This document shows, one piece after another, positions 3,053 through 38,950 of a stretch of 38,950 nt of DNA (position 1 is the first letter of the stretch; each line of letters starts with the position of its first letter). Origin of the DNA: Pseudovirgaria hyperparasitica (Eukaryota); assembly GCA_010093815.1 (NCBI GenBank), contig ML996569.1. The stretch is one strand, 5' to 3'. Below the pieces are notes generated by a model. That model ran no database searches. It was not told the DNA's origin and was given only the letters and a program-made list of their open reading frames with translations. The position numbers were made by a program, and so were the translations under genes.

Positions 3053-3087
3053 GGTTATTAGTTAAGGGCTACCCTTAACTAATAATC
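3053..3087. repeat. ~35-bp palindrome, copy 1 (LINE L1 ORF2 end)
   Basis: TTATTAGTTAAGGG-CTA-CCCTTAACTAATAA, with 14-bp perfect arms. Confidence 0.97.
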
Positions 3088-6000
3088 GGGGTTCTCCTAG
3101 GGTTCTTCCGGTATATATCGGGTTACTACTAGCGTATACCGGGTCTCTTCTAGTATATATTTCTAGGTCCACTAGTACTAGAGGAGTAGTAGATATATAA
3201 GTATCTATTAGGAGACGTCCTTAGGGTACTTATTAAGCTATTATATAACATCTAAAGTCTTCGTAACGTGGATAAGCCATTACCGTTATATATAGAGGTT
3301 AGGGTATATAGCTAGATAGTGGCGTATTATACCTCTCCGGCCATACGCCTTATACTATAGGGAGGTATCAGGAACGCCTCTCTTATAGATATAGTATAGG
3401 AGTTCTATAGCGCCCGTTCGGGCTTAGATAAGTATAGATGCTTAGGCTTTCGTTAGCCCTTTATATATCTATTTACTTAGTTCCTTCTATAGCCCTCGAA
3501 TCTACTCTAGGTACCTATCCTACTAGAAGGTCTAGTAGGTATAGAGTGTCTCTTTCTACTTATCTTAAGTCCACGACCGTATGTTTTTCACGAGTTCTTA
3601 AAGGCTCTACTAGTCTAGGAGAGCGTCCGGGTTATCTCGGACTTCTTATACTACTTAGCTAGAGTCGGCTTCTATTAAGCATCTATACTATATTCGATTC
3701 CGGCCTATATATAGGAGTGCGCGGTAATATATACTAATTCGTATATATAGCGCGGCGAAAGTATATTCTACGTTTCCTATACGTTCCTATACTTATTATT
3801 TAGTAAAGTATACTACCCTCTATATCTAGTAGAAGTTATATATACTTATAACGTCTATCTCGCGTCGTAGTAGTACCGTGTTAGTAGCTTTATATACGCC
3901 TAATATAAGACGGAGTATACGGTTCTATATGGATTTAAGCTTTATTCGCCTAGTCTATATAAGGGCCGTATACTAGTACTCGTATCCGTACGTGAAGGCG
4001 GGTCGTACTATAGATATATATAGCTGGCGTGCCTTATCCCGGGCGGTTCCCTACGTGGAGACTATAATCCGTTATATAGCGGCTTCTACCCGGAGGGCCC
4101 TAGAGACGGCGTATACTACTTATGGTCCCTATTTAAGCTTACTATCTAGTATGACTCCGAGCGCGCGCATGCTTTATACTAGTAGTTTATTAAATGCGTC
4201 GATTCGGGGGCGTTGTTCGCCTTCCCTAGTTACCTATTTCCCTTAATAATTAATAAAGTGCATGAGCTGGTATTTCTCCGGGGCGAACTTTACTCCGTGG
4301 CGTTTTATCTACTAGAGGCACCTCTCGTAGTCCTATTCTAGTCGTCTATATGTTCGGTTAGTATTATTATTAATAGCTAGGAGGTATATATTATTAGCGT
4401 ATCTAACTATCTCTATATACTCTATTTCTTAAAGAAGATCTACTATAAAGAAGAGGAATAGAATCGGAGAGATGGTGCTCCCTTATAGGATGCCGTATAC
4501 CGTCTCTTTGTATTCGCTCTAGTACCTAGAAATATATATCTAAGTTATTCTTTCTATAAGGAATGACTATATAAAGCGTATAATCTATTCTAGTATTCGT
4601 CTTATCCGGAGGTTATAAATAAGTCTTATATGGTTTACCTTATTAAACGCTCTAGCTATATTAAGGGAGAGGAGCGATACTACCCGTCCCTATTTCTATA
4701 CGGCCTAGACGACTTCAATAATATATTAGATAGCTATTATTAGAGAGCTATCTACCTTTGCCTTCTGGTTCGGAGGGAGGAGATTATGTTCCTATACCGC
4801 GGTACTTATCTTCTTCACTATCATAGCCTCTAGTATCTTACCTAGATAGGAGAGAAGGGCGATTAGTCTCTATCCCTTTAGGGAGTTAGGGCTCTTTCCT
4901 AGTTTCGGGAGTATAATAGTATAGGCGACTTAGAAGCTCTAGGGGTAGTACCCCTATATGACGTATACTTAGAATATACAAGTAATAAGCGGTAGGGTCG
5001 CTTTTATAGTACTTTTTAGACATCGATTTAGAATTCCATCTAGTCCGGGTACTTTATCATTTAGGAGTATCTTAATAATATTAAGTATATCCTCCTCCGT
5101 AACTTCTTCGGGAATATCTACCGTATATAGATATTCGGCGCCGTGAACATCTAATAGGTCTACTAGTTCCGGGAGAGGGAACATGGCCTCCCATAGGGCC
5201 TTAGTTTTCTTAAGGCTCGTGGAGTATATTCTCCCCTAATATATTAGGGGAGGCATAAGTAGCGGGGGTATCGGAGTGTCTACGCCCTTAGCCTATTTCG
5301 CTATACGCCATAGCCCTATTACGTATCGTGTCTATTAACTAGTAATTATACGCTACTATTTACGCCTTTTATTACGGAGGACTTTATCGCGTTATCGTAT
5401 CACTTCCTTCTATTCTTTCTATGACTCGGGTGTTCTCGTACGGTATACGCGTCTATATAGCCTTCGGGCGTCTTATCTACTTTCCCGTACTTAAGGAATC
5501 TCCTTTACTTCCGGGGGCCGGTATATTCGGTATAGTACGTGTTTATTTCTTATATTCTAGTATATTTATAGGAGTGTCTATACGGCCTAGTCTATGGCTA
5601 GATCGTTAGATATATCGACTATAGAGGGATCTAGGATCGCCGATTCTAGGTCCTTCAGGTACTTTTCCTAGTCGGTGTCCTTCTATATCTATCATCCCCG
5701 TTATTCGTTCGGGGTATATACGTTTATTACGGTTTCCATGTATTCATGGTCGGAATCCGTCTATACCTAGCCTAGGCGGTAGTATTAGATCCGGTAACTA
5801 ATATACTCCGTAGCGAAGGTAAGGTTAAGCGTAGACCCGTCTTTATCCTATTTATATTTTTTCTATATAACTTATCCTATAGGTGTAAGTAGATATAGGA
5901 AGTCGTGGTAGCGGGTACGTAGTTCCCTTACTCTAAGTTCTTCCCTAACCACGGCTAGACCTCCTTCCCATTAGTAGTAGAGGTTAAAGTCTCCTAGGAG

Positions 6001-6218
6001 GATATATTACCCTGGTTCCGTGGTACCCTCGAGTATCTCGTCTAGTATAAGTACACGTTATTAGTTATATATGTTATATATATATAGGGGGCCTATATCT
6101 ATTTATAGGTATAGTGTTATCCTAAGGTTATCGCGCTTAGTATACGACTATAATAAGAGTAGTATTAACCTATGAATGTAGAAGAGGACTCGTCTTTCTA
6201 GTCCTAGAGGGTATATAG
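3079..6218 (-). pseudogene. LINE ORF2 (AP endonuclease - reverse transcriptase - CCHC), RIP-inactivated, N-terminus missing
   Basis: Endonuclease motifs LLGDFN.. and SDH, the RT YADD box, and a C-terminal Cys/His knuckle. Ends ...ENPDY* inside the palindrome. Confidence 0.85.
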
Positions 6219-6590
6219 TGTGGAAGGCCGCTCCTGTAGCCCTACATGTATGTGTCCCTAGCTCGATCACATGGCTTCATTGTATATTTAAGGAGGGCGT
6301 TTTCCTTGGTCATTCTACTCGGCGCGCTCCCCCCATTACTAATATTCGACTATTCGACCTTTTCTTACGTTCATAGGCCTCTATAGGTATTGATTATTAG
6401 GCTTAGCTATTAAAGAATTGATTAAGAGTATTATATAGACCCGTCCTATTATAAAAGAGAACTAATAAGAAGTCGTACGTTCAAAGAGAACTCATAATAC
6501 CTGGGAGAGATACTTGTAAGTTCGTCGCGACTACTATACTAGGAACATAGCCATTTATAAAAGGGATACACGTGGCGATAGCTTACCATA
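6219..6590 (+). repeat. Gypsy A 5' LTR (372 bp)
   Basis: Starts TGTGG and ends CCATA (<CCACA). Direct repeat of 17189-17560 with the same length. Confidence 0.93.
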
Positions 6591-6594
6591 ATTT

Positions 6595-6611
6595 TAGAGG
6601 TCGTACCCGGA
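6595..6611 (+). promoter_or_regulatory. Primer binding site, probably complementary to the tRNA-Gln 3' end
   Basis: TAG(<TGG)AGGTCGTACCCGGA, 4 nt after the LTR. Resembles the complement of fungal tRNA-Gln ends (...CCGGGYNNGACCT-CCA), recalled rather than aligned. Confidence 0.6.
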
Positions 6612-7227
6612 CTATAAACTTATAGGGAGAGATTAGGACTCCGAAACTAGCTTAGGGGAAGTATATAGCGTGCCTAATAAGGTAGTCTAGAGTTACTAGA
6701 TCGAAGCCACGAGTCCGGAAAACAGGGAGTCTAGAGTCGCTAGGGGCTAGCCTCTTAAAAGTAGCCGTAAAAAGCATGCGTATACTAACACGGGTAATAG
6801 CGCGACTCGAAAATGTCTTAGGGGAATAGGATATAAAACAGGGCTAGATAAAGCAGTAAAGAAGAGTTTAAAAATGATAAATATAACCTATTTAGTGCTA
6901 CCATAGCTGTTATTTATAAATACGGCCATACGAGTATACTACTTTAGGAACGCCTTATACGAAGATAATAATATAAGTAGAATACCGTGAACCTTATATT
7001 AATAAAGACGATAGTAATAGTTCACCTTATAAAGGGATTAGTTAACATGGAGAAGGGATGATAGGTGTTATAGGTAGACGCATTAGGCCAACCTTTAGTT
7101 AAGGTAATCCCTTGACTAATAACCTTACCCCCAGCGTCTCTACTAGTATACCTACTACTAGTAATAGTGCGATAGGAGCTTAAAATAACGACCTAGTAAC
7201 TCGTAGAGAGATACTTAACTTCTTCGT
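6612..7227 (+). mobile_element. Gypsy A leader and probable start of gag
   Basis: Follows the LTR and PBS. A Ser/Thr-rich frame with only RIP-type stops runs at ~7082-7227. Confidence 0.65.
7095..7124. repeat. Degenerate palindrome copy (Gypsy A gag region)
   Basis: TTAGTTAAGG-TAATC-CCTTGACTAATAACC. Retains the G of CTTGAC; reads S[*<Q]GNPLTNN. Confidence 0.75.
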
Positions 7228-7737
7228 NNNNNNNNNNNNNNNNNNNNNNNNNNNNNNNNNNNNNNNNNNNNNNNNNNNNNNNNNNNNNNNNNNNNNNNNN
7301 NNNNNNNNNNNNNNNNNNNNNNNNNNNNNNNNNNNNNNNNNNNNNNNNNNNNNNNNNNNNNNNNNNNNNNNNNNNNNNNNNNNNNNNNNNNNNNNNNNNN
7401 NNNNNNNNNNNNNNNNNNNNNNNNNNNNNNNNNNNNNNNNNNNNNNNNNNNNNNNNNNNNNNNNNNNNNNNNNNNNNNNNNNNNNNNNNNNNNNNNNNNN
7501 NNNNNNNNNNNNNNNNNNNNNNNNNNNNNNNNNNNNNNNNNNNNNNNNNNNNNNNNNNNNNNNNNNNNNNNNNNNNNNNNNNNNNNNNNNNNNNNNNNNN
7601 NNNNNNNNNNNNNNNNNNNNNNNNNNNNNNNNNNNNNNNNNNNNNNNNNNNNNNNNNNNNNNNNNNNNNNNNNNNNNNNNNNNNNNNNNNNNNNNNNNNN
7701 NNNNNNNNNNNNNNNNNNNNNNNNNNNNNNNNNNNNN
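7228..7737. other. Assembly gap (N run)
   Basis: 510 consecutive N. Confidence 1.
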
Positions 7738-10700
7738 TACTATAAATTAAAGATAGAGAGTAAGAAGACCGGCTTAGAAGAGTAGTTATATAAAGAAAGA
7801 AGAACTAATGAATTTAACTACCCCTCTCTAGTTGTAGTACACGTCACGCTAGAATCGGATAAGTTTAACGAGATAGTAGAGAGATTTAGTAAACTAGACC
7901 TCACGTTAATTAAGATAAAGTCCTACTTTACCTCTAATCTCTTATTCCTATCCCTTAAGAAGTACGAACCTAAGCTACTTTTAGCCATTATTAACTAGTA
8001 GGCGCGAAGGCTAAATCTTTTAGCACATCTCTAAGCACGAGGCATGCCTATAGAACTAACGCAAGTTTATCCATAGAATTATATATAGAATAGAGAATAC
8101 GTCTCTACCCGAGACTCCTAAGGAGGCGTTATAGCCTAGGATAGACCTTAAAGACCAATTATATATATCACGTGCAGAGGAGATTACCTAATATATAGAT
8201 GTCCGGAGATGGTAGGATATATTAGAGATAGATTACTAAATATTAATAGGGTATAAGTATTCCGAGGGCGTTTCGGGGCGAACGGAGAAGAAATCCTATT
8301 ACTACCCTTCTTAGTAGGGCTATAAGCTACTCTATAAGCTATCCGGAACTACGTAGTAATGGTTTAAAACGGCCTAAGCTAGTACGGAGGAGGAGTAAAG
8401 GTTTCCACGTCTATAGTAAACATTAACGCTTTATAGGGGGTACTAGTATATAGTATTAGTATAAAATCTACGAAGGGTCCCTACTAGGCCTTAGCGGATA
8501 GCGATTCGGAAGAAGAAGTTATATCGCCCGAGAGTAAGAAAGATAGATATATAGAATTCCACGAACGCTTCGACGTGGCTAGTAACAGATATATCCGTAA
8601 GGAGATAGCCCTAGAAGAGCCCGCTATGCTCGTAATATCTAGAAGGGGGATTATAAAGAGTACACCTAATCATACTAAGGAAAGAAAGATCGCCCGTCTC
8701 TACGGAATGCGTGAAGGGTAGTATATAAGGATTATTAAGGAATAGGAGGACGGCGAGAAGAGTAGCGACTAGGGAATATCTAAATAAGAGCTAACGGCGC
8801 CGGAGGATAAGATAGATAAAGGGGATAGCCTAAATCCTAGTTAAAAGGCATGTATCCGAGGCGTTAAGCTTAATAACTATCTACGTAAAGGATAGCGGCT
8901 AAGTATAGAAGCTAGCGAAGCATAGCTAGTGCGCGTTCTAGGGATAACTATAAATATTACTATTAGCGAACTATTAAGCCTTAATAGCAACTTACGTTAT
9001 ACGGTATTCAAGAAGGGCGCCCCCGACTTTATAGCTAGAGAGGTCCGTAAGGCTCGAGAAGAGAAAGCCGAGAAGAAAGAAAGAAACGACTATACTATAG
9101 CTCCCGAGATAAATAAACTTAATATATTAGTACCCCTCTATACTATAGGGATAGCTATCACGTAACGAGATATTAATTAGCTTAAGAAAGGGATAGTAAG
9201 GCTAGTGGCCGAGTATCCGAGGTACCCTATAGAAGTTAGTTCTAAAAGGGCGACTAGTATAGTACTATTCGATAGTAGCGTATAGATAAATAGTATTCGA
9301 CTAGATGCTACGAGGCGTCTCAGGCTAGCGATATCTTTACTTCTACTATATATAAAGAACTTAAGTTTAGTTAGCGCTACTTAGTATAGTACTCTATTCG
9401 TGGGAATAGTATAGTAATACCCTATCTATATAGGTCGGATCGTTACGGCCACTTTAATATTTATATATAGCGAACTTAATTATAACCTTATCCTAGGGGA
9501 GCTATATACTAGATAGGCCTTACTTACGGTGTAGAGGTTAGCCTCTAGGTAAGTACTCTTAATAGTCTACTCCGTATATAGATAAGAACGTATAACCTTT
9601 AAAACTAGTCTAGATAAGTATATTCTAGTCTTAGAGAAGAAGGGTAACTCCATAGCTAGAGACTAACTATATAGCGGAGTATATCGCCGGAAGCCGGAGT
9701 TAAGCCGGATTATTAGTTAAGGGCTACCCTTAACTAATAATCCGTACTAAATGGGGTCCGGTAAACCTACTAATAAAGAGGATAGGCTATATTTTTATAC
9801 GGATATAGAAATAAGTTATATAGAGTTGCTTTCCGAGAAAATCCGGCCTAAAAATATTACTCGGTTATCGAGAAAAGATAACTTAGCCGCCCTAGTTACG
9901 GCGGTAAGGTACGCTACCTTCGTATATAAATAAGGTATAATAATAGAATAGCTTATAGTAGGCTCCACCGGCCTCTAAAGATAGTATTTATCTAGGGTAT
10001 TAAAGGGATTTAGTATAGCTACTATATATAAAAGAAAGGGAGTTAAAGTGTACCCTATGGATGACTCCGAAGCCTACCGAAAGGTTCCTAGGAATCTATT
10101 AGGGTATCTAGACTAGCGTAAACGAGTAATCGCACGGTAGGCACTTCTTCTAGCTATCTATCTAGGCCTTAACGCGTTTAATAGGCTAATAGAGCCTCGA
10201 AGGGTAACTATCCCGCTAGGAATACGTCTAACGCCTCTACGTATAAGTTAGCTAAAGATTAGAATAGAGCTATATCCTACGGAACTTAAGTTACTATATA
10301 TAATCTTATTACATCGCGAGGAAGTACTAGCATGGGAATTCTTATACCTTAGTAAATTTAACGAAGAGGTGGCACCTCCGTAGGAGATCCGAACGGTAGA
10401 ATATAAGGTATAGTAGGCTAAGAACTTTAATATTCCTAGAGCCCTTTATAGAAAGGTACTCACGATCCTAAAAGAGCGTCTTAATAGTAGAAGGCTCGAG
10501 CCCTATAGTAGTCCTTATCGAAACGCCTATTTTCTCGTGGAAAAGAAGAAGAAAGCCAATAAGGAACGAGATCATAGGTTAATTAATTCGGCGATAGAAA
10601 TCAACCGAGTCACTATTCGTAATGCGGCTACGCCGCCCTCATATAAAGAGTTCTTAGAGTACTTTATAGGGATGGCCGTCTTAACGTTTACCGACTTCTT

Positions 10701-13377
10701 CTTAGAATATAATTAGATTCTATTAGTAGAGTATTACCGAGACTTAATAGGGTTTATAACGCCCCTAGGATTGCTATACGAGATAATATTACCTTAAGGG
10801 GCCACTAATTCAGTAGCTTAGTTCGTTAGGATTATGTTAACTATTATATAAGAATACATCCCGGAGAGGGCTCTGCCATTTCTAGATGACTTAGGTATTA
10901 AAGGACCTACGACGAAATATAACTCTAAGGAGGCCCTGCCTAGAATTCGTAGGTATATCCTAGAATATTTAATTAACGTGGATAAGGTTCTCGCGGATAT
11001 AGAGCGCGCCGGATACGCCCTAAGTAGTAAGAAGACTTAGTAGTATATTAAAGCCGCTAACGTTATAGAATACGTCTACGATATTAAAGGGAGGCGACTA
11101 AGTAATAAAAAGGTTACTACTATTAGGGACTAGAAACCCTATAAAAACACGACGAATATGCGAGCCTTCCTTAGCGTTTATATATATTTCTAGATATAGA
11201 TCCCCGGGTACGCTATTATCGCATCGCCGCTATTTACACTATTAAAGAATAAATCGGCCTAGTAGTAGATAGCTAAGGAGTAGACCTCGATGGACGCGCT
11301 AAAGATAGCTCTAACCACTGCTCCCGTACTAATAACGTTATAGTACGGGATAGATATAGGAGATATAATCCTAGTAGTAGACTCTAGTAACGTTAGGTAG
11401 GGAGCTACGTTAATATAGGAGAACGAGGATTATAAATATTAGCCATCGCGGTATAATAGAGAAATATAGTTAAAAGCTAAGAGAAACTACGACACCGTGA
11501 AGCTAGAGTGCCGAGCCCTCCTCTACGCGTTATAGAAGTTCCGGTAATACCTCTATAGCACGCACTTTATTATAGAAATAGACGCGAATACTCTAGTCGC
11601 TTAAATCAACCGTACTATAACTAACTTACTAGGGGCGCTCGTTACTAGGTGGCTCGCGTGGATTTAGCTATAGAACTTTATAGTTAGGCACGTACCTAGG
11701 AAGCGTAACGTAGTCGCCGACGGTATCTCACGGATATACGAAGGAGAAGAACCACTAGACGTCCCTACCTTTAACCTAGACGAGTTCGTGGACATGGCTC
11801 TATATATAGACGTGCTAGAGATATTATTAATTAAGCCCGTTAGCGGGAGAGATTACACGATAGGGATACTCGACTATACCGCCATTAAGTCTCCCTTAAT
11901 AGATAAATATAGTAATAAATGGTAGAGGATTACGAAGTACCTTACTATACTTAAGAGGCTAACTAACCTAACCGACCGAGCGTATAAGGCCTTTATAACT
12001 AACTGCCTAAAGTTCCTCGTGCGTGACCGAATACTCTAGCGGAGAGGAGATAGGCATTACTAATATACACGAGTAATTAAGGATCCGAATACTAGGGCGC
12101 GTATAATTACCGCCACTTATAATAAGATAGATTATAGAGGTAGCGAAGGGACCCTCGGAAGGATTAAGGATAAGTATTAGTAGATAGATATACGTAGAGA
12201 CGTGCGATAGCACGTAAAAACCTATAATAAATATTAACGACGAAGTAAACTCCTCGGAGGTCTTAATAAAGGGCTCCACCACGTTATAACGCCTATTCTT
12301 TAGTAAAGAATATACTTGGACATAATAACGCTACCACCTTCCATAGGGTATAGTAAAGTAGTATCTATATAAGAATAGCTAAGCGGATAGACTAAGGCGG
12401 AGGCATGTACGGCGGCCACGTCTATAGTTATTATAAAGTTCCTCTTTAAGAACGTAATCTATAGATACGGAATCATTTCTAAAATCACCTATAACGGTGG
12501 TAGAGAAAATATAGGTGCCATAGAGGAGCTCCTCTAACTCTATAGAATTTATTAGAAGGTTACGTCTACGTATAATCCCCGAGTAAATAGGATTATCGAG
12601 AGAAGTTTTATACTACTCGCTAATGCTCTCGCGAAGATAACTAATGGCGGATTCAAGAACTAGCCCGGCTACCTCTATATGGTCGTCTAGATAGATAGAA
12701 TAACGACACGTGCTAGCATAGGGTATAGTACTATATACCTCGTGCTCGGCCATAAACCAATCATGCCTATCGAAGTCGAATTCAAGTTGCTCCGAATACT
12801 CCCTTAGGACGAGGTGCAATTAACGTCCGACTTACTCGCTCTTCGAGCTAGATAACTTAAGAGAAGATCCGAGGATCTTAAGAAGGCCCATGCCCATGCG
12901 ATACGAACGCGTAAGGAATCGAGAGAGATATAGAATAATAACTATTACCTTTATTAAGAGTCGTTACTAGTTAATACGATTATCCTTCTTTACGACTCGT
13001 AGTAATAGAAGGATATAGAGCGGAAGCTAAGGTAGCATTAGAGGGAGCCATATAAAATCCAGTCCGTGTTTAATTATACTTATAAGCTCGCGGAGCTTAA
13101 TAGAGCCATACTTAGAGAGACGTTTCCTAGCTATAGGTTAAAGAAATATTTTATAAGAAATATAAGTAATAAGAGTTACGATAAGCCCTTACGACTACTA
13201 ATTAGAAGAATTACCGAGGAAAATAAGGAGAGTAGCGATAAGGAAAACTATTATAAATAACTTACGGAATACCTTGACGACGCTACACGAACCCGGGTAA
13301 AAGTGGTAATTCCTACTCCGTAAGACTTTAATAGAGAAGAATATTTACGTTTCCCTAGAATTAATATCTCCTTCTAG
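7738..13377 (+). pseudogene. Gypsy A single-frame gag-pol (zinc knuckle, protease, RT, RNase H, integrase; no chromodomain), probably Ylt1-like
   Basis: All motifs are in frame +1: knuckle ~8164-8202, protease FDS[S<G] ~9268, RT PFLDDLGIKGPTTKY 10876-10920, RNase H VDSS..G ~11380, integrase HVKT[C]..[C] ~12211 and DDE core, GPY-like motif ~13045. Confidence 0.92.
9706..9744. repeat. Palindrome copy 2 (39 bp), in frame within the Gypsy A protease-RT linker
   Basis: CGGATTATTAGTTAAGGG-CTA-CCCTTAACTAATAATCCG, with 18-bp perfect arms. Reads RIIS[*<Q]GLPLTNNP in the pol frame. Confidence 0.97.
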
Positions 13378-13394
13378 GGGATAGAAGTTTTTTT

Positions 13395-13408
13395 AAGGAG
13401 GGAAGGAA
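13395..13408 (+). promoter_or_regulatory. PPT-like purine tract right after pol, not followed by an LTR
   Basis: TTTTTTT-AAGGAGGGAAGGAA about 20 bp after the pol end; the 3' LTR is 3.8 kb downstream. Confidence 0.6.
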
Positions 13409-13430
13409 TACTTATAAAAGTAGTCTTATA

Positions 13431-13530
13431 ACGATAAACTCTATTATCGAAAAAGGACGATAAACTCTATCATCGAAAGAGGATAATAAACCCTATTATC
13501 ACTATAAAATAATAAAACTTATTATTAAAG
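13431..13530. repeat. 26-bp tandem repeat, ~3.8 units, decaying rightwards
   Basis: ACGATAAACTCTATTATCGAAAAAGG / ACGATAAACTCTATCATCGAAAGAGG / ATAATAAACCCTATTATCACTATAAA / partial fourth. Unit 1 has an internal CGATAA..TTATCG dyad. Confidence 0.85.
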
Positions 13531-13733
13531 TAAGTAATGCTCGAAAGAAGATATAATGGCGTTTACGCGAATTCCACCTACTATATATTAAAGCCGGTCG
13601 TGTAATCGAAGCCTACCTATCGAAGGCCCATTTCGTTACTATAGAACGGGCCCTATTAGAAACTAATAAGGAAGAAAAGAAGGAGGAGGTATAGAAGAAA
13701 AAGATACTTATAGGAAGTCTTATAAGGATGAGA

Positions 13734-13838
13734 ATATACCCGGTATCTATTTATTTATAGATTCCGCCATATACCCGGTAGATATATTCATTTATAGATT
13801 TCCTATATACCTAGCATATATTTATTCATAGATTCGAC
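13734..13838. repeat. ~35-bp tandem repeat, 3 units
   Basis: Units of the type ATATACCCGGTATCTATTTATTTATAGATT start at 13734, 13769 and 13805; a partial unit is at 13888. Confidence 0.85.
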
Positions 13839-14056
13839 ACGTATACGGGCCTACAGCCGTTAGTAAGAATTATTTATAAAAATTACTATATACCCGGTAT
13901 TCGAGGAGGCATAAAAAGAGAACTTAAGATAGTATATAACTCTTCCCTCTTATACCTCTCCATACCTCCTTAATTAATAAAACCTCCTCCTCTACTTCCG
14001 CCTCGCTTAACTACCTCTCCTTAGAATATAACTCGCCGATAGAACTAATAATAATA

Positions 14057-17017: not shown

Positions 17018-17042
17018 TTAAGGGCTGCCCTTAACTAATAAT
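17010..17042. repeat. Palindrome copy 3, at the end of the cargo ORF
   Basis: ATTATTAGTTAAGGG-CTG-CCCTTAACTAATAAT. Its TAG (17015-17017) is in the cargo frame. Confidence 0.97.
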
Positions 17043-26196: not shown

Positions 26197-27794
26197 CTAA
26201 ACTAATTAAGTCGGAGTAGGAGTAGAAGTACTAATTACCGCGATGGTTATATCTAATTCCTTCTACTAGTTCTTATTTAGTATAGTATAGAGCTTTATAA
26301 TATAAGTCTCTAGCCTTTTATTCCGATGCTATAAATTCTATATAGCGCGCCTTATAGCTATGAACTCCTCTATAGAAATCTACGGAGTAGCGGGACCTAG
26401 GATAGAGAGAGATAGACTAGCGTAGGCACGCTAAGAATTATATAAATTAGTGAAAAGATTTAATGATTAGTATAGAACTATATACCTTTAGTATAGAAAC
26501 TTCTAGATTAGAGCTATCTTCCCTAAATTTACGGCTCTTTAGTACGCGCGAGAAAGGAACCTTAGCCTTTTTACTAGAACCTTTTCTAGGAATTTTAATA
26601 TTACTAGTATATAGAAAGAAGTCCGAAGTAGTAGAGATTTTAGTACTATTATAGAGATTAATATATATTAGTAAGAATCTATAACGATTTAAGAAAAATA
26701 ATATTACCTAGTAATCGCGGTAATAATAGCTATAGTAGATTCTAATAAATCCTTATAAATCTTATTAGAATCGTACTCCTAGGCGTAACTCTTACCTTAG
26801 ATATATAGCTTATAGAAAGCCTTCTCTAAGGCGTTATAATTAGTAGTACTACGCTTCTTATTAGTAGGGGTTACTAGAGGCCTAGTAGTAATCTATTAGG
26901 CACGTGCCTACCAGTTAATTATATATGTATGTAGTAGTCGTATATAAGTAGTATACTCTACCCTTAAAGCAGTAGCTTTAAGATTCGGTCCTTTTAGTAT
27001 AGTTGGTTAGTACGTGGAGCCCGCCTCCTTATATAATCTTAAAGCTACTACGGGGTCACGGGTTTAACTCTCGGTCTAGTTAACTATTATTGAATTTCGT
27101 ACGATTCCGTTTAGCTTACCACGTCACGTGTACTTTATACACGTGACGGATAACATGGTAGTAACATTACTACGGTAAGTTAGCGTATCTAGTACTAGAG
27201 GCGGCATTACGAATATTAATTATATGCATATGGTTTATACTAGGCCTAGTGTGGCTAGCGCGTATACTAGGCCTATTATAGCTAGTTTAGTTTATCTTTC
27301 GTAAGGTAGATGCCTACAACGCGTAAGAGCACGCGCCTTCGAAAAGGGGAGATATTATTAGGCACGTGCCTACTAGTTAATTATACATGTATATAGTAGT
27401 TGTATATAAGTAGTATACTCTACCCTTAAAGTAGTAGCTTTAAGATTCGGTCCTTTTAGTATAGTTAGTTAGTGCGTAGAGCCCGCCTCCTTATATAATC
27501 TATACTAATATAAGTAAATCTATATAAAGTTCTTTAAACTTACTTAAATATCTATAAGTAATAATACTTCTTAGTTATATAAGTACCGTATATTATAGAT
27601 TTAGTACTACCGTAAGTAATATACGATAGAAAGTAATAACTATAATAATATATAGCTAGATTATTAGAGCCCGGCCTAGGTTAGAGTAGATTAATAGCTT
27701 TCGATATATTAGTAATATATATAAGATAGGGATTATTTAAAGGCGTCTATTTCCGCGCTAATTACTTTAGAGTATCGAGATTTTAGGAAACTAT
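26197..27794 (-). pseudogene. B1 copy of the antisense spliced accessory gene, disrupted by the TRIM
   Basis: Reverse complement of 29826-30816, with the TRIM inserted at the intron 1/exon 2 junction. Confidence 0.6.
26894..27495 (+). mobile_element. TRIM-like non-autonomous mini LTR retrotransposon (602 bp; 140-bp LTRs at 26894-27033 and 27356-27495)
   Basis: Direct repeats TATTAGG(<TG)...CCTTATA(<CA). TSD TAATC at 26889-26893 and 27496-27500. PPT GAAAAGGGGAGA at 27341-27352. Absent from the matching site in B2 (~30120). Confidence 0.92.
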
Positions 27795-29113: not shown

Positions 29114-29341
29114 TATAAGAATAGGGTTATTAGATAGTAGTATAGTTAGATAGAATAATAGGGTGTATTCTATTATAGAACGAATTACTACCGAACCCTT
29201 TCGGTAGGAATCCGAGAGTATATATATAAAGGGACGCCGATCTATCTAGCACGTAACTATTTACCGCCCTTCACGTCACCTCCTAACCCTATTAGCTAAG
29301 GTATATATAGGTCGGGTTCTACCTAAGGCTAAGTCCTAATA
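29114..29341 (-). repeat. B2 3' LTR
   Basis: Repeat of 36268-36495, adjacent to a PPT (TCCCTTCCCTCT on the + strand, ~29346-29357). Confidence 0.93.
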
Positions 29342-29825
29342 ATTATCCCTTCCCTCTAGGAAGCTACCCTTAGCGATCTAGATTATTATCTATCTCTATA
29401 TCCCTATTCTAAGTCTCGTAAGACCTTAGTCGTTCTCTATACTTCGTCTTAGATACTTACTAATATTCGCTAATCTAAGATTTATATAAGTGTTTTTCTA
29501 ATAAACTAGATTTTATCTATCTTAACTTCTTATATAGGTAAGATTACCTAATTAGGCCTAGCGTATCACGTAATGTAATTAGGTAAGCCCGGGTACTATC
29601 TATATTAAAATCTTTTCTTAGAAATATTCCTTTCTTTAAAAAACTTCTTAACTCTTTATAGAGTTTTTTAGATTATTAGATATATTACCTAATCCTTATA
29701 GATATAGATTTATATAGATTTACTATAATTTAGTGCGATTTACGTAATTTACTAATTTTTATACCGTCCTTAGCTAGTAATAATATAATTCGTAATAATC
29801 TATATAAATTAATAATAATTATAAT

Positions 29826-30816
29826 ATGGTTTCCCGAAATCTTGATACTCTAAAGTAATCGGCGTGGAAATAGGCGCCTTCGAATAATCCCTATCTTATA
29901 TACGTTACCGATATATCGAAAGCTATTAATCTACCCTAACCTAGGCCGGGCTCTAATAATCTAGCTATATATTATTATAGTTATCGCTTTCCGTCGTATA
30001 TTACTCACGGTAGTACTAAATCTATAATATACGGTACTTATATAACTAAGAAGCGTTATTACTTATAGGTATTTAAGTAAGTTCGAAGAACTTTATATAG
30101 ATTTACTTATATTAGTATAGATTACTACTAGGCCTCTAGTAACCCCTACTAATAAGGAGTGTAGTACTACCGATCGTAACGCCTTAGAGAAGGCTTTCTA
30201 CGAGCTATATATCTAAGGTAAGGGTTACGCCTAGGAGTACGATTCTAATAAGATCTATAAGGATTTATTAGAATCCGCTATAGCTATTATTACCGTGATT
30301 ACTAGGTAATATCGTTTTTCTTAAATCGTTATAGATTCTTACTAATATATATTAATCTCTATAATAGTACTAAAATCTCTACTACTTCGGACTTCTTTCT
30401 ATATACCGGCGATATTAAAATTCCTAGAAAAGGTTCTAGTAAAAAGGCTAAGGTTCCTTCCTCGCGCGTGCTAAAGAGCTATAAATTTAGGGAAGATAGC
30501 TCTAATCTAGAAGTTTCTATACTAAAGGTATATAGTTCTATACCGATCGTTAAATCTTTTCGCTAATTTATATAATTCTTAGCGTGCCCGCGCTGGTCCG
30601 TCCCTCTCTATTCTAGGTCCCGCTACTCTATAGGTTTCTATAGAGGAGTTTATAGCTATAAGGCGCGCTATATAGAATTTATAGCGTCGGAACGAAAGGC
30701 TAGAGACTTATATTATAAAGCTCTATACTATACTAAATAAGAACTAGCGGAAGGAATTAGATATAACTATCGCGGTAATTAGTACTTCTACTCCTACTCC
30801 GACTTAATTAGTTTAG
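29826..30816 (+). pseudogene. Antisense four-exon accessory gene inside Gypsy B (putative Cys-rich N-terminus, basic middle, coiled-coil-like C-terminus)
   Basis: Intact ATG at 29826. Candidate GT-AG introns at 30069-30120, 30306-30367 and 30528-30582 (52, 62, 55 nt; CTAAT branch sites in introns 2 and 3). Removing them gives one frame with only RIP-type stops. Confidence 0.65.
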
Positions 30817-31159
30817 ATCTATACTAATCGGTACTAATATATCTCTTTTATCTAGCGTTTTTAGTTTTTTAGTTTTAATTTAAAGCAATCTTACTTCTTC
30901 TAGATAGATTAGTATAAGTTTATATAGATCTATATAGATCTTTATATTTTCTTTTAGCTTTCTTAATTTTATCTTTCTTTAATAATAACTTCTTTAATCT
31001 CTTTAGTAATCTATATCGATCTATACTAATCGGCACTAATTTTCGATGTCTATTTCTCTTAGTAAATTATTTTTCTAAGTTTCTTTTTTAGTTAAATTTT
31101 TTAAAGTTCTAAGTTTAAACTTTCTAAGGAAGTTTCTTAATTCCTTAGAATATTTTAAA

Positions 31160-34100
31160 GATCTATGTCTCTTTTACCTTCTTCCTTTTAGGCGGCCGTT
31201 CTTAGCGCTAAACTATACTAAAAAACGTTAAATTACTATACTTTAGTATAATTCTCTATGATTCCGCGGCTTCCTTTACTAATCGCTACTTATATACTAA
31301 TATCGCTACTTTACTAATATTTATTATAGATTCCTAAGTATCTTTATTAGGATTATATCCTTTCTAATAAATTTTATATAGCCACGTGCTATCTTCGGCG
31401 CGTTACTAGCTAAGTATCTACTTAACTTCGTAGATATCTATACCTTCTTACGTAACTACTTTATATAGTATCTATTCGGAACGATCCGGTAATAATAAGG
31501 TATAAAATAGCTCGAGAAGCGTAATATAGAATATATTATATATCTTTAACGTAGGAGGGAGTTATAACTTATACGCCTAGTTATTAATTACATAAGTAAT
31601 CTTATATAGACCTATTATTATATAGTTAAGCTTCTTCTTTAGCCTAATACTCTAAATATTCTTACTATTTAGTAAAACTTTATCCCTAACATTAAAGATT
31701 ATAGGTTTTCTACCCTTATTATAGTACGATTTACTATAATTCATAGTATCTTATAGTTACTTTATAACGCTTCTTTACGTTTAGAATAGTTCTATAGTAA
31801 TTTCTATTACTTTAACGTTAGATTATTCTACTTTAAACTAAGTCCCTAAGAACTACGTATTATGGTTCCGACCGAAGTTTACTTCGAACGGACTTACGTA
31901 GGTTAACGTATATCGGCTATTATTATACGCGAATTCCGCGATATAGACTAACCTTACCTAGTTATCCTACTTATAGTTGTAATATACGCGTAAATACGCC
32001 TCGACTATCTGATTCTACCGCTCCGTCTATCTATCTATTTATAGGTGGAATATAGTACTAAGTTTCCGCTTGATTCCTAGCGTATAGTAGAAATCCTTCT
32101 AAAATTTAGACGTTATCTACGGACCTCTATCCGAAACTATACCGTTCGGTATACTATAGAGCCGGACTACGTCATGGAGTAGTATATCTATAAGATCCGG
32201 TGCTTGGATTATCTTCTTTATAGGGATATAGTATAATATCTTCGTAAATCTATCTAGAACTATAAGTAAACTATTATAAATGTGCCTAGAATACTTACTT
32301 AGGGGCAGATCTATAATAAAATCCATCGATAATTCCTTCTATGCCTCCTTTAGCATAGGTAATAGCCTTAATTCGCTATATAGTAAGTATCTATATACTT
32401 TTATATGCTGGTAAACGTTATACGTTTTTACGTAGTCTTTTATATATTTATAAAGACCCAGCTAGTTATACGTCCTTCGGATTAAATTAACTATCCTTAT
32501 AACGCCGAAGTGCCCTACTAACGCGTAATTATACTATTCCCTTAAAATATTAATTTATAAGCCGCCTTCTAGCACGTAGAGTCGGCCTTAGAAGTAGATC
32601 GCGTCTAATTATTATTTCTACCTTAATAACTATAGCGGATCTATAGCGCTTCCTTTTATACTTATAACTTTCTTTACTAATATATCGGAATTCTAGGTAG
32701 ATTTAATTAAGTCTTTAAGGGTTTTCTTAGTTTCTTAGACGTTTATTTAGATTACTTAATACCCGCTCTAATTCCCACGGAGAATCGCCAAAAGTGTCCT
32801 AGCTTCTAGTATTCTATTAGATAACTAGTCTTATAGTATCTAAAGTATAGTATAGTCTAACTTACACCGACTATCTACGTCATTCTATAACGATTTCTTA
32901 TAATCTTTACGCCGCGATAGAGGATTAGCTTTATTCTCTCTTCTAGCTTTATATAAGATTTTAAAGTTAAATATTAATATCTACTTAGCCTAACGTACTT
33001 ATCGGCGATTAAGGACCTTAGTTAATATAAAGTAATGTAGATTTACGTAATCTAATAATAATTTAATCTAATATACGGAGCCTTCTAAATAATATTACTA
33101 TTACTTAAAACTCTCGATAATTATAAGTAGTTCCTAGTCATGCATATTATAACGCGTCTCTATATCCGCCATTTTATAGGAAAAGAAAGCGACCGGGTGC
33201 CATTACATCTTATCTTTTATATCTTTATACGGTTAACTAATAATTCTAGTAATTATAAATTCTAACGCGTTAGTTTTAACCTAAATATACTTCTTAGGAT
33301 TAAAATACCTAAGAATCGGCGTAGTTATAAAGTAATTCTTTAACGATCGGAACGTATCTCACGCTTCTAGCGTTAACTATATCCCGACTAACTTAGCTTT
33401 ACGCTATACTCGCCCATCTATAGAGATTTTACCGCTATTCTCTATAAGTTTATTAAGTAGCGCCGTAATTCGTGAGAAGCCTATAATGAATTTATAATAA
33501 TAGTTTACGAAACCTATAAATATTCTAATTTAACGTATAGTAGTAGGTTCTAGCCATTCTATAATAGTCTTTATACGCTCCGGCTCTATTTTTAGGCCGC
33601 TATGTATTATAATAAAGCCGAGAAACCTAACTTCTTATTAGTGAAACTCGTATTTAGATAATTTTACGTAGAGTTTATACTACCTTAGACGATTTAGTAC
33701 TAATTTTATATATTCTTTATAATTCTATATACTATTAGAGTAAATTAGTATATTATTAAGATAAACTACGTAAATCACGTTAAGTAATCCTACGAGTATA
33801 GTATTAATATATTCTTAAAACGCTCCTAGCGCATTTATTAGCCCGAATGGCATAATAGTATACTTAAAATAACTATATCTAGTCCGAAATGTGGTTTTCT
33901 ACTTATCTCCGCGACGAATTTAAAGCTGGTAATATATATCTTATAAATCTAGCTTTATAAAGTACTTTACCTTCATTAATTAGTCTAGAGATTTACTAAC
34001 TAGTAGTAATAGATAACGATTCTTCTTAGTCACCGTATTTAGTGCCCGATATTAACGTATAGATATAAACTTCCGTCTTTCTTCTTTACGAAGAGAATAG

Positions 34101-34930
34101 ATATACCGGCCGATAACGTACTATAACGTATCTAGTCTCTTTTAAGATATTCTTTAATATATTTATAAAGAACTTCGAGTTCTAGTCTTAAAAGTAGGTA
34201 GAGTAGACTATAAGGGACGTCTACTCCCTCTTCGAGCTCGATCTTTAGCTTATATAGCCTATAATTAGGGAGAAGTAACGTATCTTCTACCGAAAACACA
34301 TCCGTATACTATAAATATACGTTAGATAGCGTGTCTTCGCCCTAATTATTACTATCGTTCTTATCTTTATTAATAATTAATAAGGACGTAAGATAGATTA
34401 GTAATAATTAGGTCCGCACGGCGAGGTTCCATGCCTCCTTACTAATAGTTATAACTTACTAGTATAATTTACCACGGTATTATCGGAACGTTAATATCTC
34501 CTTCTAAAAATTAAGGATAGGGTTTAGGCGTCTAAGCTAAGGCATCCCTAGAATTATATTCTATTAGCTAATATTAGCCATGATAAATTTATTAGATATC
34601 TACTATTTTATTATCTTCGAGTCATGAACTTTATAATTCGTTATAGCTTTACCTAAAGTTCTAACTTTATATCTATTAACTACGATAGTTCGGCTAACTT
34701 TACCGAGATTATATAATAATCTATACTCCTTTACGAGAATCGACGAAATATAGTTATCTTCTATACTAGTATCCACGAGGGCCTATATAGTTTTATTACT
34801 ATTTACTATAGGTAATAATACTTTTAGTAATATTAGGTCTTTACTCGCCGGAAGGCGCTACGGCTCCTTCTAAGTATATATAATTTAGCTAAGAACGCGG
34901 TTAGGTCTTGTATACTAGCCTATTCCTTTT
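31160..34930 (-). pseudogene. B2 pol (protease, RT, RNase H, integrase, chromodomain)
   Basis: The ORF track at 32117-32326 shows the integrase core MDFIIDLP...IVSDRGP. Other motifs as in B1. Ends are approximate. Confidence 0.9.
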
Positions 34931-36233
34931 TCGGATTCTTATAGTTAGGCGAAATATATCCTATTTCTCTATACTTATAGTAATAAAGTATACTATAATC
35001 CTACTATTTTACGATAGGCGTTATATTTAAGTCTATACCTTATCTTTTTCCGTGTTAAGAAGTACCGCCTCGATTGTTTTAGTATCCTCTTAACGCGTTT
35101 CTACCCCGATTTACACTCTTCTAGCGCTAATCGCGGTAAGGTTACTCTTAATCGAACGTATTTAATTAACCTCGTTTCTAACCCGTATAGGGTTCGTTGG
35201 TTTTACCTAGAGAGCCACGTTTCTTAAGGATGCGGTAGTATTTATTAGCTTTCTCCTCTAATTCGTGTAGATAGTTAAAACTTAATAATACTATTTCTAG
35301 TGTTTCGTGGATTAACGGAAGTAGTACTTCGCGAAACTAGAATATACGAATATTTTTCTATAGCGTAGGGATATTATTCTATAGGTTTTAGAGGTATTAT
35401 AGTAGTTAAGTAGATGTCTAGTTCGGTCGTTATACTACGCTTCTTAACTTAGATAGTACCTTTCTTTCACGTTCTCTATCTATTCCGAGGGTATTTAGTA
35501 TAAATATAGCTAAATGTTTCTAGGTTATCGTAGATAGTAGCTATACTTCCTTCTATCTATTCTATTAATCGCGGGATTATAAGTCTAGGTATCGTTCTCT
35601 AAACGAAATACGTTATACTTTAGTAGAAAAGAGTAGAGGGTTATCAAGGAAGTACTTTTCGTAGTCTCTCTTCTAGTCTTTCCACTCCTTTTAGTTCTTC
35701 CCTATAAATATAGTCGGGTCTTTAGGTTTTAGTATACCTAGGGAAGGAGTAGAGTAAATCGGTAATAAAGCGGCTGGGTATACGGTAGATTATCGTAACT
35801 CTAATAGTAGGTAAACTAATTCCGCCTAAATTAGTATAGAAAGTCGTCCACCTACTATTATTCGGCGTAGTTCTTTAAGAGACTCCTTAAGTTCTCGTCT
35901 CTTTACGAGGAGTTTCGCGCGTTCTACCTATTCTTTAAGGGTTTAAATCTCTCGAGCCTAATTCGCAACGTATTCCTAAAGTTTAGCGATGGTTTATTAT
36001 AATACCTCGCGTAGCTCCGCTATAACTTATTATCCGGCTTTATATTATTAGAAGTTACTTAGTGTATCTACCATTTCTTCGTCTAAAAGCTCCGTGATTC
36101 GGTCTAATATTTCTACTTCTCAGTTAGAAACGGCCAGAATTAATACCAATTATAGAGGATCCCTATTATTTAATATAGTATTACTTATCCCTATAGTAGA
36201 TCGTGTCGACCTTCTCGGTTCTAGTTAGACTAT
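34920..36233 (-). pseudogene. B2 gag
   Basis: Starts [M]V[Q].EPRRSTRS just after the PBS. Ends with a zinc knuckle and KNPKKE* at an A-rich gag/pol junction. Confidence 0.75.
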
Positions 36234-36267
36234 CTTAACTATAGTACTATATAGGGAGTAATTCGAA

Positions 36268-36495
36268 TATAAGAATAGGGTTATTAGATAGTAGTATAGT
36301 TAGATAGAATAATAGGGTGTATTCTATTATAGAACGAATTACTACCGAACCCTTTCGGTAGAAATCCGAGAGTATATATATAAAGGGACGCTAATCTATC
36401 TAGCACGTGACTGTTTACCGCCCTTCACGTCACCTCCTAACCCTGTTAGCTAAGGTACGTATAGGTTAGGTCCTATCTAAGGCTAAGTCCTAACA
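36268..36495 (-). repeat. B2 5' LTR with adjacent self-priming-type PBS
   Basis: CGAATTACT just downstream of the LTR (36257-36265) is complementary to AGTAATTCG inside the LTR, ~30 nt after a TATA run. Confidence 0.9.
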
Positions 36496-37767
36496 ATATC
36501 TATATTAGAGATAGTATTAACTAATAGAATATAGATTATTTTCTTCTCTTCTATATCTATAAAATTTATAGAGTTATTAAAATAAATTATATACTTACGT
36601 TTCCTTCTAAAATAAGATATATTAGAAGATAATCTTAATAGATATAGATTTTTATAAGGTAGGTTATAGCTAGAGAAAGATTTAAATTTTAGTTAATTTA
36701 CCCTAGGCGTAGTAGAAGGCGTTCTACTATAAGAAAGGGTAGATAATCTTCGTTAGGGTGTCTTAGTAAGACTTATTATATTATCTATATAGGGCTAGAG
36801 GTTCTATATATTTTAGACTACGATTAGTATATTATAAGATACTCCTCTATTATCCGACTCTTCTTTAGACCTATCTCTTTCTATAATAATTAAGAAGAGA
36901 GATTACTACGGAAGTAGTCTCGGATTAAAGGGTATAAAAGTAATATCTTATAACTTAATAATAATCTTATAGTTAGAAATATAGTACTTATAGATTTTAT
37001 CTAATTTATTATAGCTAACTAGAATACCTTTCTCTAATCTATAAAGAAGCTTACTATCTAGCTTTTATACTTCTTTTAGAATATATATATAGTAGATAAT
37101 TCTAAATAGATATAAGTTTTAGATAGAAGGCTTCTTACTAAAGAGAATATAATATAGTATATTAACTATTAGAAGAGAGATATATAGTATAATATTCTTA
37201 ATAAACGTTATTATATAAATTACTTTAGTCTAGAATTTTAACTTAGTATTAGAAGAGAGAATAGATCTTACTAATATCTAAACTATATAGTTAAATCTTT
37301 CGGCTATTCTATTTAACTTATAAGAGTAGACGGGAGAGATAATATATATAGTACTAGTCTTATAAAAGAAGTCTTAAAGACTTTTAGTAATATACTTACT
37401 ACCTTAGTTAGATATAAACTCCTTAATATCTATATTAAATTACTTCTTAATATATATAAAGAACTATATAATAATATTAGAAGCTTCTAACTTATACTTT
37501 ATAAAGCGAATCTATATAAAGTAGATTAATTCTTTAATAAAGGAGATATAGTACTATAACCTATTTAGAGATTTATATAGTATTTTACTAGAGAGGTCGC
37601 TATAAACTCTACTAAATTATATTTTATATTACCTATTTAAGCTTAAAGGCTTCTTATACATAGATTTAGATATACTATAACTCTTATAGTAGAAGTTACT
37701 TAGCTACTTAGAAATTATATTAAAATCTTTATAAAGTCTTTTAGAATTTATAATATAATAATAATCT
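36496..37767 (-). mobile_element. Copia relic, integrase and SH3-like segment (continues into 28507-29113)
   Basis: S[D][Q]G[G][E]Y ~37390-37410; N[G]IAERFN ~37290-37315; F[G]..[C]Y.[H]I.K..KL..EKGILV[G]Y ~37010-37110. Confidence 0.85.
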
Positions 37768-38950
37768 ATAATAATAATAATAATAATAATATTGTATAAC
37801 TAGGTAGAGTAGTACTCTATAGGCTAATGCCTCCTCTAGTCTAAGCCACTATATAAGAAGAAACCCCATAGGGAAAAACTTCCTTATATCTATAACTATA
37901 TCTCGTTAAACCTCTATTTCGTCTTAAGTATATAGCTATAGAGTACGCCTATTAGCCTATAGCCTATATTACCGTTATTTCGCCCTTAGGTAGTACGTAT
38001 AGATACGGAGGTTATTAGTTAAGGGCTGCCCTTAACTAATAATCGGGGTTCTCCTAGGGTTCTTCCGGTATATATCGGGTTACTACTAGCGTATACCGGG
38101 TCTCTTCCGGCATATATTTCCGGGTCTACTAGTACTAGAGGAGTAGTAGATATATAAGTATCTATCGGGAGACGTCCTTAGGGTACTTATTAAGCTATTA
38201 TACGATATCTAAAGTCTTCGTAATATAGATAAGCTATTACCGTTATATATGGAGGTTAGGGTATATAGCTAGATAGTGGCGTATTATACCTCTCCGGCCG
38301 TACGCCTTACACTATAGGGAGGTATTAGGAACGCCTCTCTTATAGATATAGTATAGGAGTCCTATAGCGCCCGTTCGGGCTTAGATAAGTATAGATACTT
38401 AGGCTTTCGTTAGCCCTTTATATATCTATTTACTCGGTTCCTTCTATGGCCCTTAAATCTACTCTAGGTACCTATCCTACTAGAAGGTCTAGTAGGCACG
38501 GAGTGCCTCTTTCTACTTATCTTAAGTCCACGACCGTATATTTTTCACGAGTTCTTAAAGGCTCTACTAGTCTAGGAGAGCGTCTGGGTTATCTCGGACT
38601 TCTTATACTACTTAGCTAGAGTCGGCTTCTATTAAGCACCTATACCGTATTTAATTCCGGCCTATATATAGGAGTATACGGTAATATATACTAATTCGTG
38701 CGCGTAGCGCGGCGAAAGTATATTCTACGTTTCCTATGCGTTCCTATACTTATTATTTAGTAAAGTATACCACTCTCTATATCTAGTAGAAGTTATATAT
38801 ACTTATGACGTCTATCTCGTGTCGTAGTAGTACCGTGTTAGTAGCTTTATATACGCCTAATATAAGACGGAGTATACGGTTCTATATGGATTCGAGCTTT
38901 ATTCGCCTAGTCTATATAAGGGCCGTGTACTAGCACTCGTGTCCGTACGT
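37768..38950 (-). mobile_element. Tad-like LINE, subfamily 1 (copy L3), 3' end with (TTA)n tail; runs out of the window
   Basis: (TAA)n on the + strand at 37768-37792. Near-identical to 2847-3993 apart from transitions. Confidence 0.93.
38010..38044. repeat. Palindrome copy 5 (LINE L3 ORF2 end)
   Basis: TTATTAGTTAAGGG-CTG-CCCTTAACTAATAA. Confidence 0.97.

Follow-up and report, generated by a model that had tools for sequence, protein, structure and literature searches.

A centre-perfect palindrome of 35–39 bp in both a LINE and a Ty3/Gypsy element of Pseudovirgaria hyperparasitica, possibly a cis-acting signal

A stretch of 38,950 nt from Pseudovirgaria hyperparasitica (contig ML996569.1, hereafter the window) carries one and the same 35–39 bp palindrome in two kinds of retroelement, a long interspersed nuclear element (LINE) and a Ty3/Gypsy element with long terminal repeats (LTRs), here called Gypsy A. 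It occupies four positions in these two elements, all of them in non-coding spacers or untranslated regions (UTRs). We tentatively regard it as a cis-acting dyad cassette that is native to the non-coding spacers of retroelements and has been exchanged between them by recombination, a reading that we prefer with a confidence that stays short of even.

The + strand has exact copies of the 31-nt core (central base R) at 3055–3085, 9710–9740, 17011–17041, 20566–20596 and 38012–38042, compared with no match in 100 dinucleotide shuffles, and the starts given in the original prediction, which had been made from the letters alone, proved right within 0–4 nt. Besides one AT-rich 18-mer at 12219/25682, the palindrome alone supplies 18-mers common to non-homologous parts of the window. 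The centre reads CTG in two copies (17010–17042 and 38012–38042) and CTA in three, a TpG to TpA change of the type made by repeat-induced point mutation (RIP), and in the CTG form the symmetry is perfect up to a single central base. Weak outer arms stretch the 17010–17042 palindrome to 16990–17065. A degenerate copy at 7095–7127 is real as well; it has 5 mismatches in a 28-mer, while matches with at most 6 mismatches arise in only 2 of 200 Markov simulations of the window, and as predicted it retains one un-RIPped TTGAC where the other copies read TTAAC.

Being short and perfect, the palindrome has the form typical of some linkers, yet an artefact (an adapter or linker, an assembly palindrome, or a chance convergence made by RIP) is hardly credible. 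The shuffles speak against it. Three LINE copies, one of which has a target duplication at its ends, carry the palindrome at homologous sites, the centre shows a RIP-type G/A difference, and a degenerate copy exists. Moreover, the palindrome sites are covered gap-free by contigs of two runs, X1 and X2, though both come from one sample that is possibly the assembly's own source.

Positions 6219–17558 form one complete 11.3-kb Ty3/Gypsy element of three open reading frames (ORFs) with 370-bp LTRs (Gypsy A copy 2; Table 1). In a self-comparison of the window, 6210–6586 is 92% identical to 17183–17556 and hence belongs to an LTR; its assignment to the 5′ part of a LINE was rejected. The two repeats differ by transitions alone, a polypurine tract (17174–17184) resembling that of L001, an intact metagenomic relative, precedes the 3′ repeat, and in other contigs the sequence past 17558 reads like the leader start at 6589; these are therefore the LTRs of a single element. 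The ORFs of L001, mapped by tblastn, fall in the same order (gag-protease, pol, ORF3), with pol matched at 10006–13239 (41% identity to P0002) and residues 458–852 of the L001 ORF3 at 15455–16660, and thus the "cargo ORF" at the end of which the 17010 site had been placed is the conserved ORF3 of the Gypsy lineage itself. Similarly, the 9706 site, which had been assigned to a linker within pol, lies at the ORF1/pol junction. The MGSGKP at 9751 corresponds to the MGGKQKP start of the pol homologue P0001, and between the palindrome at 9706–9744 and pol stands TACTAA, followed by the ATG at 9751, in a stop-start arrangement (9745–9753).

The LINE copies were identified by the self-comparison together with Pfam. 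The alignment of their ORF2 to P0153 reaches the CCHC region, beyond which the tail is variable; the palindrome comes after this conserved end and, in LINE sense, precedes the (TTA)n tail at 20327–20345 by about 240 nt. All the palindromes of Gypsy A and of the LINE are outside conserved coding sequence. The claim of four non-homologous contexts in two retroelement orders is literally true, but the independence of these contexts was overstated, as three of them belong to one Gypsy element.

Table 1. Palindrome copies and retroelement features of the window (positions in nt)
Feature	Position	Strand	Remarks
Palindrome copy, best preserved	9706–9744		CGGATTATTAGTTAAGGGCTACCCTTAACTAATAATCCG; 18-bp arms, CTA centre; in Gypsy A copy 2, 6 nt short of the pol ATG (9751)
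Palindrome copy	17010–17042		16-bp arms, 1-nt centre, CTG form; just 3′ of Gypsy A ORF3, 146 nt upstream of the 3′ LTR
Palindrome copy	3053–3087		One outer mismatch; 3′ UTR of LINE A, position homologous to the LINE B site
Palindrome copy	20564–20598		3′ UTR of LINE B, just past the conserved ORF2 end
Palindrome copy	38010–38044		CTG centre; 3′ UTR of LINE C, position homologous to the LINE A and B sites
Palindrome copy, degenerate	7095–7127		Leader of Gypsy A copy 2, 507 nt past the 5′ LTR
5′ LTR of Gypsy A copy 2	6219–6588	+	TGTGG...CCA; 28 transitions and 0 transversions relative to the 3′ LTR
ORF1 (gag-protease) homology	9190–9657	+	tblastn with the intact relative L001
pol (reverse transcriptase, RNase H, integrase)	9751–13300	+	Interrupted by RIP stops; RT_RNaseH E 1.5e-13
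ORF3	14966–16981	+	Conserved family; earlier "cargo ORF"
3′ LTR of Gypsy A copy 2	17189–17558	+	Preceded by a polypurine tract
LINE A, visible part	2847–6216	−	RVT_1 E 7.4e-17; 3′ end in a run of N
LINE B, complete insertion inside Gypsy B	20328–24342	−	Target duplication of about 15 bp; (TTA)n tail in sense
LINE C	37775 to window end	−	94% identical to LINE A

RIP mutations run through the whole window, with TA/AT of 1.4–1.85 and (CA+TG)/(AC+GT) of 0.09–0.37, and close copies diverge almost wholly by transitions (68 transitions to 1 transversion, 152 to 2 and 28 to 0). LINE A and LINE B, separated by 660 transitions and 244 transversions over 3372 columns (7% transversions), are to judge from this divergence true subfamilies. 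At the palindrome, a 35-nt segment of their alignment shows 1 difference against a mean of 9.5, and only 30 of 3338 such segments (0.9%) show at most 1. The claim that the arms are identical between diverged LINE subfamilies is remarkable only in part, because RIP finds neither CpA nor TpG in the CTA form. Nonetheless, the 31-nt cores at the two intact Gypsy sites and in LINE A and LINE B differ by zero transversions, which points to a constraint on the sequence itself.

A comparison was available from a distant sister Gypsy family, for which the pol homologue P0001 (41% identical over the reverse transcriptase part) led to 48 loci on metagenomic contigs of fungi, with a pol 36–41% identical to that of Gypsy A. 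The intact locus L001 has 274-bp LTRs, ORF1 at 582–3515, pol at 3737–7105 and ORF3 at 7462–10422. A different, 27-bp centre-perfect palindrome was found in the pol-ORF3 spacer of 28 of the 29 sister loci that cover this spacer; its L001 form, GATTTTCCATGCCGGGCATGGAAAATC, is built as 13+1+13 with a 1-nt centre, lies 69 nt before the ORF3 ATG and is the strongest hairpin of that locus. No other perfect stem of at least 12 bp occurs in these loci (about 361 kb). One of its pairs is C·G in 15 rows and G·C in 4, a compensatory swap beyond the reach of RIP, while the other 11 rows have G·U, A·U, U·G or unpaired bases at this pair. The excess of G·U over mismatches in the sister alignment was traced to the flanking dinucleotide context and not to selection on RNA. 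In the 33 sister loci that include the pol start, the interval from −200 to +30 around it held no hairpin of at least 9 perfect bp, and therefore the position of the sister palindrome differs from that in the window.

The conservation of the window's palindrome could also be that of a neutral relic, i.e. the trace of a LINE-Gypsy recombination, for example a template switch at the hairpin, whose copies stayed identical only because they lack RIP-able sites. The CTA form and the predominance of transitions between close copies would agree with this explanation. However, three Gypsy positions plus the LINE are beyond one event, the cassette is free of the transversions that make up 7% of the LINE A/B alignment and belongs to the most conserved 0.9% of it, and the sister family keeps a palindrome of its own, with a compensatory swap, at 28 of 29 loci. 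We consider a neutral relic improbable.

If the palindrome is instead a cis-acting cassette, it would have been present in the master sequence of two families, Gypsy A (leader, ORF1/pol junction and post-ORF3 position) and the LINE (3′ UTR), one family having acquired it from the other when recombination or template switching took place around the palindrome. It would then have been kept because a putative sequence-specific factor recognizes it. The direction of the transfer, the binding factor and an action on DNA and not on RNA are all points that we infer. The symmetry up to a single central base, and the presence of the cassette either way round relative to transcription, would suggest that its main site of action is the double-stranded DNA copy, with the symmetric dyad serving as a protein-binding site of the promoter or enhancer type. 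We find a protein-binding site on DNA more likely than an RNA hairpin, and the best reading of the cassette is that it is not a separate transposon.

Promoter and enhancer cassettes, among them pairs of CCAAT boxes bound by the CCAAT-binding complex, are known from internal promoters and from the U3 regions of LTRs. In L001 the palindrome is bracketed by CCAAT (7359) and ATTGG (7397), so that, as in such cassettes, it sits between the two motifs shortly before the ORF3 ATG, and the sister core was also met in LTR-like sequence (see below). A further CCAAT...ATTGG pair, with TATATAG adjoining, is found in the L001 LTR (162–216); over the whole locus these pentamers are not enriched (24 in 10.9 kb, about 21 expected). 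In RIPped sister copies CCAAT/ATTGG become CTAAT/ATTAG, the very pentamers that stand inside the arms of the window's palindrome, where they may be RIP products of CCAAT and ATTGG. The arms may once have held CCAAT boxes. Unlike the known cassettes, the window has only CTAAT/ATTAG, and one copy lies as close as 6 nt to an ATG.

Perhaps the same cassette, equally intrinsic to the retroelements, was selected as an RNA hairpin in the transcript, where it could serve 3′-UTR or inter-ORF stability or export, packaging or dimerization, 5′-3′ cyclization between the leader and the post-ORF3 copy, or the coupling of ORF1 termination to pol initiation. Every copy is found in transcribed non-coding sequence (leader, ORF junction or 3′ UTR), folding predictions give very stable hairpins (−24 to −35 kcal/mol; z-scores −5.2 to −5.6), the stop-start arrangement TACTAA then ATG directly follows one of them, and a compensatory swap is present in the sister family. 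Yet complementarity that reaches to a 1-nt centre is unusable by RNA, the loop is CUG in the sense of the Gypsy element but CAG in that of the LINE, the exact sequence is conserved and not pairing alone, and Rfam 15 gave no match at the gathering score anywhere in the window. On balance we hold a role as RNA hairpin to be rather unlikely.

For stringent LINEs, 3′-UTR stem-loops recognized by the element's own reverse transcriptase are reported (PMC5135761). The window's LINE resembles them in having a conserved stem-loop-forming sequence in its 3′ UTR that is kept between subfamilies. It differs in that some 240 nt stand between the palindrome and the (TTA)n tail, whereas signals of the stringent type lie directly upstream of the tail, at the 3′ terminus, and in that the palindrome is centre-perfect as DNA and is present three times in an LTR retrotransposon as well. 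LTR retrotransposons and retroviruses in turn have self-complementary sequences, the palindrome (PAL) and dimerization initiation site (DIS) sequences, and 5′-3′ cyclization sequences. The cassette is like these in being self-complementary within non-coding RNA, and its leader and near-3′ copies could pair, the one in the Gypsy A leader being the degenerate copy only; unlike them, it is perfect and far longer, recurs at an ORF junction and is also found in a LINE. The RNA structure of Ty1 is related to this comparison (PMC7969010).

Homologous flanks, as one recombination event would leave them, were not seen: between the non-LINE sites themselves, and between these and the LINE 3′ region, the flanks show nothing significant in common (best nhmmer E 0.059), and two borderline pairwise scores (z 3.8 and 3.0 in about 45 tests) are at chance level. 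On the same E value, the Gypsy copies were rejected as 5′-truncated LINE tails or fragments. The 7095 and 17011 copies do not represent one LTR position, as their flanks are unlike and the real LTRs lie at 6219–6588 and 17189–17558. A footprint of hairpin repair or transposon excision was also dismissed, since such events copy local sequence and here the same sequence recurs; so was a Helitron 3′ hairpin, for which conserved Gypsy or LINE sequence stands on both sides and the A|T junction is missing. A hammerhead-like motif that appears after un-doing RIP was judged speculative, being without helix II/GAAA context.

Such unrelated flanks would also be expected of a miniature non-autonomous mobile palindrome, the other alternative that had been proposed, i.e. 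a unit like a miniature inverted-repeat transposable element (MITE) or a repetitive extragenic palindromic (REP) element, or a hairpin-borne patch, that inserted on its own and survived only in the dispensable spacers of active transposable elements, which then multiplied it. The same 35–39 bp at four positions with flanks that lack homology, the location in spacers, which is what survivorship predicts, and a second fungus, in which another core is found both in a pol-ORF3 spacer and in LTR-like sequence tied to a chromovirus, with one homologous site empty, would all suit it.

In the second fungus, locus L048 has two extra copies of the sister core, one as part of a 125-bp piece of the spacer (7419–7544) and one of 46–48 bp (9976–10023). 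The sequence on both sides of the 46-bp core (9918–10152) is homologous to positions 3757–3972 of locus L038, which are immediately downstream of pol in an unrelated Gypsy element of chromovirus type (domains RVT_1, RNase H, integrase zinc and SH3_Tf2-1), after a purine run, and probably are the start of the chromovirus 3′ LTR. The 125-bp piece sits in a second, inverted sequence of the same LTR-like kind. Thus, a second palindrome, unrelated to the first, is also common to unrelated retroelements, in patches that vary in length and have the palindrome at their centre. L038 is without the core, having 4 nt where L048 has 36, yet it retains the outer arm sequence; to judge from these two sequences, capture followed by trimming and central deletion both fit the pattern.

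Several results stand against a mobile palindrome. In agreement with the original prediction, no direct repeat that could be a target duplication flanks the palindrome at any of its four contexts, and the CG beside 9708–9742 is a mere extension of the palindrome. Contigs of runs X1 and X2 were aligned to 7738–24300 at a minimum identity of 80% (48,792 and 16,737 pieces, respectively); among the differences listed, at a threshold of 5%, almost all are transitions and 5 are indel rows, none of which is at a palindrome, so that no common empty site was found. The joints 9741>20677, 20597>20677 and 20597>20825 are not interpretable, as their 21–24-nt sides are just a palindrome arm. Single arms with at most 3 mismatches gave 4 matches outside the palindromes of the window, 2 of them independent, against 1.84 expected, and no larger element bounded by single arms was seen within it. 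A RIP-aware form of the 31-mer, degenerate for RIP and deRIP, had no match in the JGI metagenome contigs, the IMG/VR viral contigs or 185,579 prokaryote genomes (one per species). Even the apparently empty site of L038 keeps its outer arms, and a central deletion explains it as well.

Bacterial REP elements are mobilized by RAYT transposases. The cassette is like REP elements and MITEs in being a tiny palindromic unit at several unrelated positions; it is unlike them in that target duplications, a common empty site among the differences listed and a partner transposase were not seen, that all its copies are inside other transposable elements and that it is absent from the prokaryote collection. 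The inverted repeats by which a MITE is recognized are trivially present in a unit that consists entirely of 16–18-bp arms and do not discriminate. A mobile palindrome of this kind is therefore, in our estimation, unlikely. Of the two alternatives originally offered, the binding or hairpin signal is the one favored, because the sites are non-coding, a common empty site was not found among the differences listed, the LINE copies are conserved and the sister family has its own palindrome with a swap; the REP/MITE-like alternative stands without target duplication, partner transposase or clean empty site.

Taken together with the patches of L048, the window may hint at a wider, though doubtful, possibility, that centre-perfect palindromes form a class of hitch-hiking cassettes in filamentous fungi, moving as patches of 35–125 bp between the spacers, UTRs and LTRs of unrelated retroelements. 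They would be moved by hairpin-triggered template switching or cruciform-directed recombination and would spread by riding on active transposable elements. If this is true, they would parallel REP-like elements in eukaryotes, with other transposons for their habitat, and the two unrelated palindromes in two fungi would be independent instances. The three states of the sister core (absent, 46-bp and 125-bp patch) offer a natural series on the movement or decay of a cassette. Modules carried by different retroelement classes have a precedent in bdelloid rotifers, whose LTR elements reportedly capture ORFs also present in other retroelement classes (PMC5408684). The likeness is that one module is found in an LTR and a non-LTR element of the same genome; the difference is that here it is a 35-bp non-coding palindrome and not an ORF. 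In the literature searches, as far as the texts returned go, no description of this palindrome or of any palindrome shared by LINE and Gypsy elements in fungi was found.

Several points weigh against a DNA-acting cassette exchanged between retroelements. That it occurs in two families only is a statement about these 39 kb of P. hyperparasitica. The CCAAT reading of the window depends on un-doing RIP, ATTAG/CTAAT are common in the window (7.4 per kb), and the CCAAT/ATTGG pair of L001 could merely lengthen the stem. All positions of the palindrome are also transcribed, and a role in RNA fits them equally well. A distance of only 6 nt to the pol ATG is awkward for a pol promoter, and an ordinary transcription-factor site needs less than 35–39 bp of perfect symmetry. 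Rare empty sites could escape the differences listed at the 5% threshold. Finally, the sister palindrome is unrelated in sequence and is located in a different spacer, so that the analogy with it is one of structure and not of homology.

If the palindrome is indeed a shared control signal, LTR and non-LTR elements of one genome would trade very small cis-regulatory modules. Dependence on the same factor would provide a single handle on several families of transposable elements and a marker for recombination between them. In addition, a functional motif would be readable even in heavily RIP-mutated DNA, provided that no RIP-able dinucleotides are left in it. As a by-product, the analysis cleanly describes a three-ORF Gypsy lineage that is widespread in fungi and has a third ORF resembling a dioxygenase of the PhyH type.

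This ORF3 belongs to a family of 583 representative clusters at E≤1e-3. Pfam, run on 13201–17200 in six frames with stops as X, found no family there, and the ORF3 family is without a Pfam match. In the ESM Atlas, ORF3 is grouped by features (0.96) with PhyH-type dioxygenases, the residues concerned being about 500–830 and the type Fe(II)/2-oxoglutarate, and the predicted structures compare at a template-modelling (TM) score of 0.50–0.51 by query and 0.66–0.74 by matched row. We take the PhyH-like nature of ORF3 as a lead only. A published parallel may be seen in orchid Gypsy elements with a dioxygenase-type RNA demethylase domain, as reported (PMC9289625).

No target duplication is evident at the ends of Gypsy A copy 2, whose 5′ LTR abuts the 5′ end of LINE A and whose 3′ LTR abuts a truncated Gypsy B. 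Two runs of N interrupt the window. The one at 1862–2846 (985 nt) hides the 3′ end of LINE A and the ORF1/pol palindrome site expected in Gypsy A copy 1, beginning 112 nt before the expected place of that palindrome; the one at 7228–7737 (510 nt) hides part of the leader and the ORF1 start of Gypsy A copy 2. LINE B, of 4.0 kb, lies between the halves of its target duplication (20312–20326 and 24343–24358), and its homologues carry endonuclease and RVT_1 domains. An uninterrupted, inverted copy of Gypsy B at 29114–36497 represents the empty site for LINE B, around 32656–32671.

Smaller motifs were also observed. In the pol-ORF3 spacer of Gypsy A, a mini-palindrome at 13652–13672 is built of the main cassette's outer arm motif with AAA in the middle. 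It may have arisen from a full copy by loss of the centre, but of the 13 occurrences of the motif pair (4.58 expected) five are the known copies, and the excess is not significant. In the Gypsy A LTR, 9 nt repeat the outer left arm exactly (GATTATTAG) and 13 of 16 nt agree with the right arm; these arm-like matches, at 6336–6345 and 6393–6402 and again at 17306–17315 and 17363–17372, are upstream of TATA-like runs and may be due to chance in AT-rich DNA. Gypsy B has shorter palindromes of its own, with 11 matched bp, at 29184–29211 and 36338–36365, at 27122–27148, and at 25862–25890 and 31122–31150, one of them inside its LTRs of about 230 bp and one with two CACGTG motifs. Short palindromes in LTRs and spacers may thus be a general trait of such elements.

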